A stretch of 49,971 nt of DNA from sequence record DRR378314_1192, one strand, 5' to 3'. Shown here piece after piece: positions 42,078 through 47,575 of the stretch. The notes under the pieces are model-generated. The model did no database searches. It saw only the letters and a list, made by a program, of their open reading frames with translations, and was not told where the DNA came from. Both the position numbers and the translations under genes were made by a program. Numbering within the stretch: position 1 is the first letter of the stretch; the number at the start of each line of letters is the position of its first letter.

Positions 42078-42650
42078 TTACCGGGGGGCCCGTTTTGCGA
42101 GGATACGCTGCAGTGTGCGCCGGTGCATGTTCAGGCGACGTGCCGTTTCCGAAACATTGTGATTACACAATTCGTACACGCGCTGAATATGCTCCCAACG
42201 GACACGGTCCGCAGACATCGGATTTTCCGGCGGGGCAGGTTTTTCGTCTGGCGAAGCCGTGAGCGCACGGATGATATCGTCAACATCGGCTGGCTTCGAC
42301 AGGTAATCGACGGCTCCGGCCTTCACAGCGGCGACTGCTGTCGCAATTGCGCCATATCCGGTGAGGATCACTGCGCGCGCGTCAGGACGGTGTTTTTGCA
42401 GGACTTCCACCACATCAAGACCGCTGCCATCTTCCAGGCGCAGATCCAGAACCGCGAAAGCGGGCGGGTTAAGACGGGCAATATCCTTGCCTTCAGAGAC
42501 CGAAGATACCGCAGAGACCACAAAACCGCGTTGAGCCAGGGCACGGGCCATACGCTGCACGAAGGGGCCATCATCATCCATGACGAGACAGGAGCGGTCC
42601 TCAACATCCTTGAGGCTCTCGTGCAGATTTACGTTAACTGGCCGATCCAT
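42078..42650 (-). CDS. regA: RegA/PrrA/ActR redox response regulator
   Basis: LTGYG.IATAVAAVK, PMSADRVRWEHIQRV, NVSETARRLNMHRRTLQRILAKR. Confidence 0.97.
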   Translation of the reverse strand: MDRPVNVNLHESLKDVEDRSCLVMDDDGPFVQRMARALAQRGFVVSAVSSVSEGKDIARLNPPAFAVLDLRLEDGSGLDVVEVLQKHRPDARAVILTGYGAIATAVAAVKAGAVDYLSKPADVDDIIRALTASPDEKPAPPENPMSADRVRWEHIQRVYELCNHNVSETARRLNMHRRTLQRILAKRAPR

Positions 42651-42677
42651 GATCTTATCCTTGGTGTAATATTGGCC

Positions 42678-42707
42678 ATATAGGTCTGAACCGTCACTTA
42701 ATCCAAG
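42678..42707 (-). promoter_or_regulatory. Internal promoter for regA (RpoH/RpoD-like)
   Basis: CTTGGA-N17-CCTATAT overlapping the regB stop. Confidence 0.5.
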
Positions 42708-44068
42708 TCAGGCGCCTGCAAAAGAGTCAGTGGCCACAGGGTCTGGACCACAGCGCCGCGTTTCGGCGGTGTCCGGTTTCGCGTCGCAATGCGGCCACCT
42801 GTGCGCTCAATCAGCGTCTTGGCGATGAAAAAGCCAAGCCCCATGTCGCCGCCGCCCAGATGCGCTTCGCCGCGTTGCGACACATAGGGTTCGCCCAGTT
42901 TCGGCAGCACTTCCGGAGCAAATCCGGGGCCGTCATCGCTGATTGTGATGATGATCTGGTCCGCCGTCCAAGTCGCGACGACATTCACGCGCGTATCGGC
43001 AAAGCTGACAGCATTCTCGATGAAGGCACCGAGCGCATGCAGCACTTCCGGGCTGCGCTTGAGGACCGGGGCGCGAGCATCACCGCCGTCTCCGGCCTCT
43101 GCCCGGACACGCACCTCAACACCCAGGCCCTTGAAGGGGGCGGCCGCCTCGGCAACCAGTGAATCGAGCGGGATCTGGGCGTGGACAATGTCTGTGGCTT
43201 CCCGCGCTTCGCGAATGGTGGCCAGAATGGCGCGGCAGCGGTCGGCCTGTTCGGCAATCAGGATAATGTCCTCTGCGCGTGGGTCGTCCGGCCCCAGGTC
43301 GCCCTGAAGTTCCTTTGCAACCAGATGAATTGTCGCCAGCGGAGTGCCGAGCTCGTGGGTTGTCATGGCAGACATCGCGCCCAAGGCTGACAGTCTCTGT
43401 TCTCGCGCCATCACCACGCCGGCCGCGTCCAGCGCCCGCACGAGCCGCGCTTCATCCTGACTGACCCGCGCCGCCGAAAGGGCAAAAAAGACAACGCCGA
43501 CGGCAAGCGCCGCGAACTGGCCAAGCTGGAACAGCGCCGGCAGGGCAACAGTGCTATCGGCAACGCCCCAGGGCAGGGGCAGGTGAATCATCGGCATGAG
43601 GGCGGCCAGCAGGAGCGCGAGCAGCGCAATCAGCGTCGCCCGGAACGGGCTGAGGCTCAGTGCGGCCACTGTCACCGGAGCCACCAACAGCAACAGGAAG
43701 GGATTGGACAGGCCGCCCGTCGCAGCAATCAAGGCCGCCAGTTGCACGGTATCGAAGGCCAATTGCAGTGTGGCCTCCCAGCCGCGTGTCAGGCGCTGGC
43801 TCTGGAAGGCGAAAGACAGAAAGACGTTGAGCCACGCCGAGGCGGCGATAATCGACAGGCAAAGCGCCAGCGGCATGTCGAAATTCAGGCCAAATGCAAC
43901 AAAGAGTACAGCGGCGGTCTGCCCGGCCACGGCGAGCCAGCGCAATGTGATGAACGTACGAAGGCGCGTTCGCCCGAGGGCCGACTGCGCCGATCCCAGC
44001 CCTTCCGGGGGCAGGGTGAAGATCGCATCGTCGAGATCTATGTGTCCGTCGCGGGTCAAATCATCCAT
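42698..44068 (-). CDS. regB: RegB/PrrB/ActS sensor histidine kinase
   Basis: LRWLAVAGQ, TGGLSNPF quinone-binding motif, HELGTPLATI H-box, RCR cysteine, DDGPGF, MGLG. Confidence 0.96.
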   Translation of the reverse strand: MDDLTRDGHIDLDDAIFTLPPEGLGSAQSALGRTRLRTFITLRWLAVAGQTAAVLFVAFGLNFDMPLALCLSIIAASAWLNVFLSFAFQSQRLTRGWEATLQLAFDTVQLAALIAATGGLSNPFLLLLVAPVTVAALSLSPFRATLIALLALLLAALMPMIHLPLPWGVADSTVALPALFQLGQFAALAVGVVFFALSAARVSQDEARLVRALDAAGVVMAREQRLSALGAMSAMTTHELGTPLATIHLVAKELQGDLGPDDPRAEDIILIAEQADRCRAILATIREAREATDIVHAQIPLDSLVAEAAAPFKGLGVEVRVRAEAGDGGDARAPVLKRSPEVLHALGAFIENAVSFADTRVNVVATWTADQIIITISDDGPGFAPEVLPKLGEPYVSQRGEAHLGGGDMGLGFFIAKTLIERTGGRIATRNRTPPKRGAVVQTLWPLTLLQAPDLD

Positions 44069-44079
44069 TTGTGCCTTAT

Positions 44080-44094
44080 GCGGCAGCGTGACGC
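44080..44094. promoter_or_regulatory. RegA/RegR box
   Basis: GCGGC-N5-GACGC between divergent regB and senC. Confidence 0.5.
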
Positions 44095-44130
44095 TTGCGC
44101 CAAGCGCCGCTTGCGGCCCATATCGCCCTC

Positions 44131-44772
44131 ATGATGATCAGATCGCTCCTTGCCCCATCCGCCTTGCTGGCCGCCGCCTTGCTGGCCGCGTGTTCCCCAT
44201 CGTCTGCGCCAGAGGCTGACGCTGCCCCGCGTGCCAAGTCCAGCGGCGTGCAGGCCAGTTGCACTGGCCGGGCCTATCCCGAGATTGGCGGGCCGATTTC
44301 CCTGATCAATGATGCGGGGGAACGCGTCACGGAAGAGACCTATAAGGGGCGTCCGACGCTGATCTATTTCGGTTTCACCTATTGCCCGGATGTCTGCCCG
44401 ATGACGCTGGTGAATGTGGAGCGCGCTTATTCGCAGTTGCCCGAAAATATTGAGCCGCCCCAGACCCTGTTGATCTCTGTAGATCCCGAGCGTGATACGC
44501 CAGAAGCGCTTGCCGCTTATGTGAAAGCGCCCCGTTTCCCGGAAAACCTGGTCGGGCTGACAGGCTCACCGGAAGACGTGCGCGCGGCAGCCGATGAGTT
44601 CCTGTCGGATTATTCCCGGATCGAACAATCGGGCAGCCAGTCTGAATACACGATGGACCACACATCTTTGCTGTACCTGATGGACGAGGACTGGCAGCTG
44701 AAAACCTTCTTCACCCATGAAGACACGGCAGAGACCATTTCGGCCTGCCTTGGCGAATTGCTGGCAGAATAG
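44131..44772 (+). CDS. senC: SCO1/SenC copper chaperone, lipoprotein
   Basis: Lipobox LAAC; FGFTYCPDVCP; ISVDPERDT; YTMDHT. Confidence 0.93.
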   Translation: MMIRSLLAPSALLAAALLAACSPSSAPEADAAPRAKSSGVQASCTGRAYPEIGGPISLINDAGERVTEETYKGRPTLIYFGFTYCPDVCPMTLVNVERAYSQLPENIEPPQTLLISVDPERDTPEALAAYVKAPRFPENLVGLTGSPEDVRAAADEFLSDYSRIEQSGSQSEYTMDHTSLLYLMDEDWQLKTFFTHEDTAETISACLGELLAE

Positions 44773-44776
44773 GTAA

Positions 44777-44799
44777 AGGCCCGCCGTGCTGGCGGGCCT
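44777..44799. terminator. Hairpin between convergent senC and the metal operon
   Basis: AGGCCCGCC-GTGCT-GGCGGGCCT. Confidence 0.6.
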
Positions 44800-44806
44800 G
44801 TCTGTT

Positions 44807-45193
44807 TCAGGCCAGCAAGCTCGCTGCGAAAAACGCAAAGAATGCGCCGATCACGAATGCGCCAACGCTGATCCACCAGACGATCCAGCTGATCCGGCGC
44901 GCCCGTGTGCAAGCGCGTGCCTGGGCCGGGTCGACTGGGCAGGGCAGCGAACGTGCATGCCATTGCCAGGCTCCGGCCACCGCGATCATCCCTGCTGCGA
45001 TAGAGAAGACCAGCTCCTTGTTCTTGCCGAGCCAGGTGATCTGCGGAACCGCTTCGATCAGGCCCGCCATGACGGCCCCGGCACCGATGCTGACCAGCAG
45101 TGCGGGCAGGGCGCAGCAGATCAGGGTTCCCGTCGAAGTGAACAGAGACAGGAAGGCCGGCAGCGTACTTGGCGCCTTTACTTCGCCGCTCAT
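44807..45193 (-). CDS. MerT/MerF-like metal transport membrane protein
   Basis: Three hydrophobic segments; TLICCALP vicinal cysteines in TM1; loop LPCP...RAC; ATGA overlap with the upstream gene. Confidence 0.7.
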   Translation of the reverse strand: MSGEVKAPSTLPAFLSLFTSTGTLICCALPALLVSIGAGAVMAGLIEAVPQITWLGKNKELVFSIAAGMIAVAGAWQWHARSLPCPVDPAQARACTRARRISWIVWWISVGAFVIGAFFAFFAASLLA

Positions 45194-45579
45194 GCGTCGT
45201 CGCCCCGGTCTATGCTGACGAGCGAATAGCCGGATTTGCGGATCAGCTTTCCGATTGTTTCATCATCCATGTTCGCGCCTGCCTTCAGGCCAAGGACGAT
45301 TTGTCCGTTGTCCAGGTCCACAGTCACGCTTTCCACGGCGTCCTGTTTCTTGAACACTTTGCGGACGGCCTGCGCACAAAAATCGCAGACAAGGCCATTC
45401 ACCTTGGCGGTGACGATTTGGGCCGAGTCGGCCACGTCTTTTGTGTCCACCAGATCGGGCGCTGCACCTTCATGTGCAGAATGATCCATTTTTGAATGGT
45501 CCATCATTTCGTCAGCCAATGCTGGCGTAGTCAGGACGGAAAGGGCGAGGATGCCAAAGGCGATCTTGTTCAGTTTCAT
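45190..45579 (-). CDS. Exported heavy-metal-associated (HMA) domain protein
   Basis: Signal peptide ending ALA; MMDHSKMDHSAH; VNGLVCDFC; SGY. Confidence 0.85.
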   Translation of the reverse strand: MKLNKIAFGILALSVLTTPALADEMMDHSKMDHSAHEGAAPDLVDTKDVADSAQIVTAKVNGLVCDFCAQAVRKVFKKQDAVESVTVDLDNGQIVLGLKAGANMDDETIGKLIRKSGYSLVSIDRGDDA

Positions 45580-45597: not shown

Positions 45598-46245
45598 TCA
45601 GAACCGGATGATCCAGTTCGCAAGCAGTTCCTCGGTCTCCAGAGTATAGCCGATTTCGACCATCTGGACGTCCTTGAAGAACCGGATGAGAGGGGTTGTG
45701 GTTGTGGGCTCGGCTGCTTCCGGGTGGTTGTCCACCTGCAGCATCAGCCAGGTATGGAGGTCTCCGAAGTCGCCGATATAGGGGGCAACGCCGAGCCGCG
45801 CACTGTGGCGCAGGCTCTGGTTTCCGGCATAGTCGGTCGCCCGTGCCTCATAGGAGGTAAACCAGCGCCGGGTTTCCCAGTCCGCAGCGAATGCCGCGAA
45901 ACCTGAAAGCTCTCCCGACGCATCGCCGAACGGGTCAGCTTCACCAACGCCCAGTTTCAGATAGGTGTTGGCCTGACTGCTGGGGCCATTCCATCGCTTC
46001 AGCAGGCGATTGTATTGCAGGCCGGTGAATTGCACGTCTTCGGCCCAGTTCCGTTCGGCATAAAAGCCGATGGAATCCGAGGCCGTTGGCGAATAATGCA
46101 GATGGAGCGACGACGCATCGCCATTGTTCATCTGCATTGCCGTCCAGCCTCCGGGATAGGAAACGGGACGTGCCTCGGCTATGGGGGCCAGGGCCGCCCA
46201 AGTCAGGCATGCCGCAACAGGTGCGGCGCGGGATAGGAAGGACAA
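45598..46245 (-). CDS. Hypothetical exported protein, probable small outer-membrane beta-barrel
   Basis: AAGGAG RBS with TTG start; signal peptide ending AEA; alternating aromatic strands; C-terminal ..NWIIRF. Confidence 0.7.
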   Translation of the reverse strand: MSFLSRAAPVAACLTWAALAPIAEARPVSYPGGWTAMQMNNGDASSLHLHYSPTASDSIGFYAERNWAEDVQFTGLQYNRLLKRWNGPSSQANTYLKLGVGEADPFGDASGELSGFAAFAADWETRRWFTSYEARATDYAGNQSLRHSARLGVAPYIGDFGDLHTWLMLQVDNHPEAAEPTTTTPLIRFFKDVQMVEIGYTLETEELLANWIIRF

Positions 46246-46250
46246 GGCCT

Positions 46251-46329
46251 TCTCCTTTGTTCCGGGTTGAATGGATGTTTCTCGGGAAACATCACACCCG
46301 GGGAGGGGGCGGCTCCGGTACAAAGGTGA
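46251..46329 (-). promoter_or_regulatory. Putative translational attenuator (anti-SD/SD helix)
   Basis: mRNA UCACCUUUGUACCGG (46329-46315) pairs 13 of 15 with CCGGAACAAAGGAGA (46265-46251); inner hairpin GAUGUUUC-CCGA-GAAACAUC. Confidence 0.65.
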
Positions 46330-46645
46330 TCGAGACAGGACTTGCGTCCAGCGGCGCATCGAACAGCGGTGGATAGGTCTGGCTTACCTTATCCCCTGCG
46401 GTAGCTGATGGAAGCGCCGCAACAATGGCAGGACAGCAACACGCTGCATTGTCCATCATGCCATCCATCGGTTCATCAGGCGCGTCGGCTGGGGCGTGCT
46501 CCATCATGCCCATGTCGCAATCAGCCGCCATCACATGAACCATCTGGCTCGCCTTTGCAGCGGGACAGCCCGCTTGCGCGGCGCTGGCTGTACCAGACGC
46601 GATCAGCAACAGGCTGAAGCAGAGAAGGGCGATCCTGTGGAACAT
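46292..46645 (-). CDS. CutF/CruR/CopL-like secreted metal-sensing leader protein
   Basis: Sec signal; Met/His/Cys-rich core with ACCCP; C-terminal PEPPPPRV; first gene of the metal operon. Confidence 0.7.
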   Translation of the reverse strand: MFHRIALLCFSLLLIASGTASAAQAGCPAAKASQMVHVMAADCDMGMMEHAPADAPDEPMDGMMDNAACCCPAIVAALPSATAGDKVSQTYPPLFDAPLDASPVSITFVPEPPPPRV

Positions 46646-46699: not shown

Positions 46700-47482
46700 C
46701 TATTGCGCCACCCAGCCCCCATCGATCGACAGGTCTGCGCCATTGATCTGGTCGGCATCAGGCGAACAAAGAAAGGCGACGAACCCGCCAATCTGCTCTG
46801 CTGTCACGAACTCCTTCGTTGGCTGGGCGGCAAGCAGCACATTTTTCACCACTTCGTCGCGGGTCATACCGCGTGCCTTTGCAGTGTCGTCAATCTGGCC
46901 ATCAACCAGCGGCGTATGCACATAGCCGGGACAGACAAGATTGCACCGTACGCCGTGTTCCGCCCCTTCGAGTGCAGTCACCTTGGTCAGGCCGGCGAGG
47001 CCATGCTTGGCGGCGACGTAAGCGGCCTTGAACGGAGAGGCGACCTTGGCATGTGCGCTGCCTGTATTGATGATGCGGCCCCAGCCCTTTTCCTTCATCG
47101 GCCCGAGCGCAAGGCGCGTGGTGTGAAAAGCCGCTGACAGGTTCAGCGCCATGATCAGATCCCATTTGGCAACGGGGAAATCTTCCAGCGGAGAGACAAA
47201 TTGCGTCCCGGCATTGTTGACGAGGATGTCCACCCCGCCGAATTCCTTCGTCACATAGTCGAACATGCCTTCGATGGCGTTCGGCTTGGTCAGGTCAGCG
47301 CCTGAATAGCCAACCTGTACGCCGTGTTCCGATTGCATCTCTTTCTGGAGAGACGCAATTTCATCGGCGTCGCCGAAGCCGTTGAGCACAATATCGGCCC
47401 CGGCCTGCGCGAGCCGCTCGGCGATCGCCTTTCCAATGCCGCTGGTCGAGCCGGTAACGAGGGCGGTTTTCCCCTTGATCAT
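46700..47482 (-). CDS. 3-hydroxybutyrate dehydrogenase
   Basis: VTGSTSGIG, NNAG.Q, SAH..ASPFKAAYVAAKHG, CPGYV.TPLV..QI, DGGW. Confidence 0.93.
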   Translation of the reverse strand: MIKGKTALVTGSTSGIGKAIAERLAQAGADIVLNGFGDADEIASLQKEMQSEHGVQVGYSGADLTKPNAIEGMFDYVTKEFGGVDILVNNAGTQFVSPLEDFPVAKWDLIMALNLSAAFHTTRLALGPMKEKGWGRIINTGSAHAKVASPFKAAYVAAKHGLAGLTKVTALEGAEHGVRCNLVCPGYVHTPLVDGQIDDTAKARGMTRDEVVKNVLLAAQPTKEFVTAEQIGGFVAFLCSPDADQINGADLSIDGGWVAQ

Positions 47483-47575
47483 GAATCTGTCTCCTTGAGG
47501 CAATGGCATGCTATGGGTAGGGATAAGTATGGCTCAGTTCGGGTCAATGGAAATCAGAGGAAATGGCGAGCGTTT

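Follow-up and report, generated by a model that had tools for sequence, protein, structure and literature searches.

A candidate metal-sensing leader peptide with a proline-rich tail upstream of an outer-membrane barrel gene in an alphaproteobacterial family

Results

The stretch of DNA analyzed here, 49,971 nucleotides (nt) from sequence record DRR378314_1192 (the window), carries on its minus strand a small open reading frame (ORF) of 117 amino acids and a UGA stop (46292-46645), followed by a gene for a predicted outer-membrane beta-barrel protein (45598-46245). We examined this ORF as a candidate metal-sensing leader of the barrel gene and of the genes for an HMA-domain protein and a MerT-like membrane protein that come after it. 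Both the ORF and its ending, ITFVPEPPPPRV followed by the stop, were found where an earlier reading of the sequence (the original prediction) had placed them. The stop codon occupies 46294-46292 and the TTG start of the barrel gene 46245-46243, which bears out the predicted gap of 46 nt. The peptide begins with a probable Sec signal peptide (residues 1-22, MFHRIALLCFSLLLIASGTASA; 46580-46645), recognized by eye from a positive charge at the start, a hydrophobic core and an A-S-A sequence, and this hydrophobic N-terminus is kept across alignments. The middle of the leader is rich in Met, His and Cys, with Cys43 in a (H)CDM motif (46517-46519) and a CCCP motif at residues 69-72 (46430-46441). 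The tail, PEPPPPRV, spans residues 110-117 (46295-46318), with four Pro codons at 46312-46301.

The leader belongs to a family that is small: a large protein collection contains 16 relatives, and an exhaustive profile search of 1.84 billion proteins returned 15 representatives at 50% identity. C27, C43, the CCCP motif and PEPPPPR (110-116) are among the positions invariant in 14 close homologues. The leader profile matches 22 of 61 related genomes, all within one genus (22/37), and none of 24 genomes from other families of the order. The barrel gene, which is better conserved and is present in 47/151 genomes and 10/18 genera, instead gave access to further genera of this family. Within the genus, the leader directly precedes the barrel gene at all 21 loci and the HMA and MerT-like genes come next at 20, the 21st locus ending early. 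Leader and barrel gene go together in the 13 genus genomes in which both were sought: 6 have the two, and in 7 neither was found. Of 20 loci taken from other genera, every one has the genes for barrel, HMA and MerT-like proteins in the same order, and 17 have a small leader-like ORF directly upstream of the barrel gene.

Comparison of 39 loci from several genera of this one alphaproteobacterial family (individual loci are given L numbers) shows that the same elements recur throughout. At each locus the leader combines a probable signal peptide and a Cys motif with a C-terminal tail of the form P(P/R/T)PP(R/K), it ends in UGA, and the next gene encodes a predicted 12-strand outer-membrane barrel. 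The leader frame stays open in all 39, its insertions and deletions being in frame. The Pro-rich tail on whose conservation the original prediction depended is thus found in 39/39, in the forms PEPPPPR[AVT], PEPPPPKA, PEPRPPKA, PET[PR]PPK[AV], EPPPPRTI and others. When 29 members are aligned, with identities to the window down to about 20%, the invariant positions are reduced to C27, C69, C71, P114 and P115; Cys43 is not conserved family-wide, and the CC-C of the window aligns with the CxGC of the most distant members (L037-L042).

Some individual copies have unusual features. At the counterpart locus in the nearest genome (L006; G001, C4), the leader ORF (1501-1815) is 105 amino acids long, an in-frame loss of 12 residues having taken the end of the signal peptide and Cys27, and the remainder is almost identical to the window leader. 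The 115-residue protein P0012 matches the leader over 67 residues and then continues in another frame through the intergenic region, and looks like a frameshifted or mis-assembled copy. Contig C25 of G161 carries two whole cassettes (L030 and L031), each with one leader, whose anti-Shine-Dalgarno and Shine-Dalgarno (SD) sequences differ.

The leader also keeps a fixed internal distance. In the window the last Pro lies 44 residues past the last Cys, and across the 39 loci this interval measures 44 residues in 23, 45 in 9, 46 in 1 and 42 in 6. Two residues follow the last Pro in 32/39 leaders. The sequence between the two landmarks is nearly free to vary, and insertions and deletions fall elsewhere in the leader. 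Leaders diverge quickly, with identities across the genus (L006 left out) of 32-65% vs 61-91% for their neighbors. Together, the fixed spacing, the scant conservation otherwise and the fast divergence suggest a regulatory nascent peptide, for which such a pattern is expected, rather than a folded protein. A comparable ruler has been described for DUF2946 proteins, where 45 residues (+/-1-2) separate CXXC from RAPP (Roy et al., PMC9426467); the ruler here is about five residues shorter than the C93-to-P142 interval of CruR.

These observations bear on the simplest alternative, namely that the ORF encodes an ordinary secreted metal-binding protein, such as a periplasmic Cys/Met/His buffer or chaperone, which is plainly coupled to the next gene and whose Pro tail is structural or causes a mild constitutive pause. 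The Met/His/Cys-rich middle is what such a protein would have. Outside the Cys motif and the tail, however, little of the sequence is conserved, and yet the spacing of the two is fixed, which describes a ruler and not a fold. In addition, the tail lies exactly two residues from the stop in 32/39 leaders. We regard this alternative as unlikely.

We then considered the RNA. According to the original prediction, the codons just before the prolines are complementary to the SD region of the barrel gene, and this holds. The 15-mer at 46329-46315, within codons 106-111 on the minus strand (UCACCUUUGUACCGG), is Watson-Crick complementary at 13/15 positions to 46265-46251, which contains the SD AAGGAG (46257-46252). 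No other site of 13 of 15 or better exists on the minus strand of the whole window, and one arises in only 1/20000 shuffles of the 120 nt upstream. The minimum free energy (MFE) fold of 46345-46230 contains this long-range helix together with a nested hairpin (-37.8 kcal/mol, z = -3.45, 1/200 shuffles as good), in agreement with the predicted architecture, and the CCGGGU/ACCCGG sequences that could form an alternative pairing are present as well. A small alternative hairpin in the MFE fold, GAAGG/CCUUC (46237-46252, minus strand), encloses the TTG start and offers the SD region a second partner. In silico, the SD of the window is paired with a probability of 0.90 and costs 8.4-8.6 kcal/mol to open, so that RNA structure shields it, as has been described for the target of CutF.

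Across the 39 loci, the SD core has a mean pairing probability of 0.66, and in 29 it pairs with the 3' end of the leader at P >= 0.3. The partner shifts between lineages: it consists of codons just upstream of the Pro run in the window, L003, L006 and L025-L028, of the Pro codons themselves in L001, L002, L007, L008, L010, L023 and L033, and of the last codons with the stop in L011, L019, L021, L037-L040 and L042. What recurs is thus the pairing of the SD with the leader 3' end, and not the specific arm found in the window. Between lineages, some changes appear compensatory, with CCUUUGU/ACAAAGG in the window vs UCUGUU/AACAGA in L004, and CCUG...CAGG in L025 vs CAAUU...AAUUG in L031. Among 27 representatives less than 80% identical, duplexes between cognate leader ends and SDs are more stable than non-cognate ones (mean -12.73 vs -10.36 kcal/mol), and 0/20000 permutations reached as low a value.

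A second RNA element lies at the stop codon. As predicted, an 8-base-pair hairpin with a 4-nt loop covers the leader stop codon (46274-46293, minus strand). Its arms, GAUGUUUC and GAAACAUC, span 46293-46274, the first base being the second base of the stop codon, the G of UGA. The MFE fold from stop to SD pairs at least the G and A of UGA in 35/39 loci; the hairpin begins just past the stop in three others, and one locus has no hairpin. The stop hairpins comprise 18 distinct stems, in which registers 4-9 carry 2-5 standard pair types. The mean pairing probability of the stop codon is 0.79, vs 0.36 in dinucleotide shuffles of the spacer, and reaches at least 0.8 in 20/27 representatives. Sequence comparison therefore indicates that the UGA stop is held in a covarying hairpin, which weighs against an ordinary secreted protein. 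If Pro114 occupies the P site and Pro115 the A site, the hairpin's first paired base lies 6-7 nt past the A-site codon. This is approximately the mRNA entrance of the ribosome, where its helicase is positioned, and the hairpin could add to a pause there.

To model the passage of a ribosome, a 30-nt footprint was forced unpaired at successive P-site codons, the four Pro codons being codons -6 to -3. Opening the SD of the window costs 8.4 kcal/mol without a ribosome, 4.9-6.5 kcal/mol with the P site at codons -15 to -3, and 9.0 kcal/mol at the last two codons. The same open-then-reclose pattern is seen in L003, L006 and L025-L028. Downstream initiation would thus gain from a ribosome pausing on the Pro run and not from one that terminates, since the SD opens at the Pro codons and recloses at the last two, although the effect is partial in silico. 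The proposal that a ribosome on the prolines frees the SD accordingly stands as to the direction of the effect, and has to be restricted as to its extent, as the SD is freed only in part. Such reclosing is also a poor design for the coupling by a terminating ribosome that an ordinary upstream gene would rely on.

The genes downstream provide the functional context. The barrel gene (45598-46245, minus strand) encodes 215 amino acids with a signal peptide and a predicted 12-strand outer-membrane barrel, ending in ...NWIIRF. Its TTG start finds support in its alignment with ATG starts in homologues and in the resulting signal peptide, which ends in A-x-A before the conserved mature end RPVSY. RPVSY and many Trp, Arg and His positions are invariant in the family, whose C-terminus reads ...NW[IV]xRF. 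The structural model has 12 strands, a predicted local distance difference test score of 84.6 and a predicted template modeling (TM) score of 0.78, and Foldseek matches it to solved 12-strand outer-membrane barrels only generically (TM 0.4-0.5). The protein has no Pfam or NCBIfam match. Its 1825 relatives in the protein collection are all named hypothetical, some of them labelled Hyphomonas, Henriciella or Hellea. The next gene (45190-45579, minus strand) encodes an exported, CopZ/MerP-like protein of 129 amino acids with an HMA domain (PF00403, E = 7.8e-9), which stays below the cut-offs of the CopZ and MerP models. The third gene (44807-45193, minus strand) encodes a membrane protein of 128 amino acids with CC in its first hydrophobic segment. 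Its language-model neighbors are named MerT family, which we treat as a lead only, as none of 10 members of this protein family matches PF02411 (MerT) at E <= 10. NCBIfam likewise returned nothing for the leader or the membrane protein.

The identity of the signal is suggested by loci that lack the leader. At three of the 20 loci from other genera (L032, L035 and L036), the barrel/HMA/MerT-like cassette occurs without it. In L032 and L035, a CsoR-family gene (PF02583, 95 bits) takes its place, with a stop that overlaps the barrel start, and all three loci have an operator-like TACCC...GGGTA palindrome upstream. The CsoR proteins of these sister loci carry the H-x4-C and upstream Cys pattern, which we take to be that of the Cu(I)-sensing type. 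No such palindrome is found in the window. The presence of CsoR elements in place of the leader points to copper as the signal and to induction rather than repression, and is the main reason why we name copper and expect induction. It also argues against an ordinary secreted protein, as control elements at three loci, with the repressor gene in two, are what would be expected to replace a regulator. Further context on the side of copper is provided by the HMA domain within the cassette and by senC/SCO1 and regBA, which adjoin it.

Discussion

Every sequence feature named in the original prediction is present at its coordinates and exceeds what chance produces. We think it probable, at roughly 60%, that the ORF regulates in cis as a leader of the functional class of CutF and CruR, heading a leader/barrel/HMA/MerT-like operon. 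In the scheme that we infer, which covers stalling, metal specificity and the direction of regulation, the ribosome would pause on PPPP for a time set by metal, most likely Cu(I), bound to the Cys motif of the nascent chain during export. While on the Pro codons, it would hold the anti-SD region and abut the stop hairpin, making the barrel SD easier to open (from 8.4 to about 5-6 kcal/mol), and at termination the helix would re-form (9.0 kcal/mol). With metal, the pause would be longer and translation higher, as in CutF; this direction is proposed because the cassette of the sister loci appears to be under a repressor of the CsoR type, released by Cu(I).

The closest functional parallel is CutF of R. 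capsulatus, a DUF2946 protein exported by Sec that carries CxxxC and, at its C-terminus, PPP, the motif on which copper-dependent stalling is reported to melt a stem that shields the cutO SD (PMC9973294; 10.1101/2025.02.05.636593). Like CutF, the window leader is a small, probably Sec-exported alphaproteobacterial peptide with a Cys motif some 40-45 residues before a C-terminal Pro run. As in cutFOG, a short gap leads to the next gene of a copper-related operon, the SD of which is shielded by RNA structure. Unlike CutF, it has CCC(P) and PPPP(R/K), scores below the DUF2946 cut-off, carries its anti-SD arm inside the leader ORF and has a separate hairpin that holds the stop codon, and its target is an unannotated outer-membrane barrel/HMA/MerT-like cassette rather than a multicopper oxidase. 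Ozturk et al. (2023) defined by rule 5,334 CutF-like proteins in 29 sequence clusters, with diverse Cys/His motifs and neighbors, one of the rules being recovery by iterative jackhmmer from CutF seeds (PMC9973294). Among the rules that we checked, the leader has fewer than 150 residues (117), PP within the last 15 (PPPP at 112-115), a signal-like N-terminus as judged by eye and a gene downstream that shares its strand, less than 1000 nt away (46 nt). The main text of that study does not contain HMA, MerT or Hyphomon, and CCC occurs there only within CCCP, the protonophore.

The arrangement also resembles SecM/secA of E. coli, in which a C-terminal arrest of an exported leader exposes the next SD by melting a stem. 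SecM senses export activity and not metal, and it uses another arrest sequence.

CruR (Bp2923 of B. pertussis) offers a different precedent, in which CXXC and RAPP motifs are combined and copper relieves the arrest, leading to Rho-dependent termination (PMC9426467); in vitro, the arrest has been demonstrated with the P and A sites both on Pro codons (PMC12992588). As with CruR, the window leader is the first ORF of a copper-related operon, and its Cys motif keeps a conserved distance to a Pro-Pro motif 2-3 residues from the end. The opposite logic could thus apply here: constitutive arrest on the Pro run would shield the transcript from Rho, and metal would relieve it, so that Rho would stop transcription before the barrel gene and switch an uptake operon off. 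The mRNA strand has more C than G at about 46330-46190 (33-42% C vs 21-29% G), the kind of bubble described for cruR (PMC9426467), the HMA and MerT-like pair resembles an import pair, and the in vitro arrest of CruR, with Pro codons in both sites (PMC12992588), is a further point in favor. However, the gap in cruR measures 162 nt and an unstructured stretch is described as required (PMC9426467), whereas the window has 46 nt of strongly structured RNA. The tail is not RAPP, and the CsoR control seen for this cassette at sister loci speaks for copper as an inducer. Relief of arrest by copper and the dispensable signal peptide of CruR also differ from what we propose for the window leader. We consider regulation of the CruR type quite improbable, and continue to favor a leader whose pause is lengthened by metal.

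Several results nonetheless weigh against this reading. First, occlusion of the SD is not exceptional. Fourteen SDs scored in the window, including the target (8.38 kcal/mol), average 5.9 with a standard deviation of 2.6 kcal/mol, a single one lying above 8.59. When the leader end of the window is recoded synonymously, the cost still amounts to 6.06 +/- 1.41 kcal/mol, with 9/150 at or above the observed value, and across loci the comparison of SD opening energy with synonymous recoding is significant in only a few. Such values are also what an ordinary secreted protein would show. Second, the switch would be incomplete. Even when the ribosome occupies the Pro codons, part of the window SD stays paired, and codons 2-4 of the barrel gene persist as another partner. 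In L001, L002, L004 and L005, the opening cost hardly changes from about 6-7 kcal/mol because the GAAGG/CCUUC hairpin around the TTG start acts as the second partner. In 10/39 loci, the SD pairs little with the leader end.

Third, comparative evidence for the SD helix is uneven. RNAalifold applied to the whole MAFFT alignment of 22 sequences returned no consensus structure, as the stems vary in length and position; folding each sequence singly and counting pair types by register took its place. Applied to nine well-aligned sequences, it recovered the stop hairpin and a different, short pairing between Pro codons and SD. The SD helix that we had named is 75.5% paired in these nine, against 28-48% after a shift of 1-3 columns. 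Its covariation, a sign of conservation that the original prediction called for, nevertheless does not exceed that of shuffles in this subgroup (113/500 reach the score). The blank result on the 22 sequences is what chance features of GC-rich DNA, around an ORF without a regulatory role, would give. We find such an origin barely credible in view of the fold (z = -3.45), the 1/20000 shuffles with an equivalent site, the pairing of the stop codon (0.79 vs 0.36) and the conservation of the tail in 39/39 loci. Fourth, some tails are reduced to PP alone (PETRPPKA), and PP is a weaker pause motif than a longer Pro run. Fifth, a MerP/MerT-like pair suggests import, which fits repression by metal better than induction.

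Finally, membership of DUF2946, to which the original prediction had looked for relatives, could not be demonstrated. The window ORF scores 15.6 bits (E = 0.028) against Pfam DUF2946 (PF11162), the cut-off being 23.7. Matches at E <= 0.1 are found in 8/29 members, the best at 0.0024 and none over the cut-off; five of 10 database relatives match, likewise below it (best 23.5 bits). An hhalign comparison of the 29 leaders with 12 canonical DUF2946 proteins of the genus gave a probability of 0.5% (E = 0.12) over 8 columns at the Cys motif. The defining motifs differ too. In place of CXXC, the window has CCCP, that is C-x-C, as the original prediction had noted in setting it apart from the CxxC of the known examples, and L037-L042 have CxGC in the same columns. 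In place of RAPP three residues from the end, the tail PEPPPPRV has PP without R-A-P-P. We therefore describe a leader that would work like CutF and CruR, and whose homology to DUF2946 is possible and not demonstrable from these comparisons.

More speculatively, peptide and mRNA might act as two keys of one switch. The ruler would set the Cys motif at the junction of the ribosome exit and SecY when Pro-Pro occupies the P and A sites, the UGA hairpin would stand at the mRNA entry, and together they would determine how long the ribosome dwells and thereby opens the next SD. The family would then have arisen separately or as an extreme branch of DUF2946, controlling a three-part envelope metal pathway (barrel, periplasmic HMA protein and MerT-like protein) that has not been described and is interchangeable in evolution with CsoR repression. 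As a whole, this extended model is tentative and rather unlikely.

New here are the CCC/PPPP(R/K) family, its fixed ruler, the stop-codon hairpin, the lineage-shifting anti-SD arm, the uncharacterized target cassette and the swap between leader and CsoR. Work on metal-sensing arrest peptides has until now concerned two proteins, CutF and CruR, which show opposite behaviors, and the present family would provide a third, compact test case. It offers natural variation in the sensor (CCC vs CxGC), in the tail (PPPP vs PRPP vs TRPP) and in the position of the anti-SD arm, of which there are three, along with an invariant ruler and a stop hairpin. It also points to an unannotated barrel family of 1825 proteins and its two partners as a copper-linked envelope system. 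The loci with CsoR control elements in place of the leader amount to a natural experiment on translational vs transcriptional control by metal.

Other features of the locus

Contigs from RNA libraries bridge the junction of leader and barrel gene (X2 record, 45683-46346; X4 record, 46106-46479). They may reflect simple co-expression, as of an ordinary upstream gene, and are weak support for it, DNA being possible in such libraries. Contigs of this kind do not reveal level, ends or strand, and gaps in their cover carry no meaning.

Upstream, a gene for 3-hydroxybutyrate dehydrogenase (46700-47509, minus strand) stops 54 nt short of the leader start and is found in synteny at 21/21 genus loci. 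A promoter scan found no sigma-70-like site before the leader, and because no promoter-like site lies between the two genes, read-through from the dehydrogenase gene into the leader is possible. A terminator-like match at 46311-46295 consists of a weak 5-base-pair stem in the Pro codons and was not taken as a terminator.

At the other end, genes for a response regulator (ActR/PrrA/RegA), a kinase (ActS/PrrB/RegB) and SCO1/SenC adjoin the operon at 42078-44772, SCO1/SenC being convergent with it. A GC-rich 10-base-pair hairpin between the operon end and senC/SCO1 (44777-44799) is probably a shared terminator.

The same genus also carries canonical DUF2946 leaders at other loci (L043-L054), with CxxC, a double RGPP...RAPP tail and structured gaps of about 75-85 nt. 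Canonical DUF2946 proteins over the Pfam cut-off are found in 28/41 genus genomes, and many genomes carry two kinds of Pro-tailed leader.

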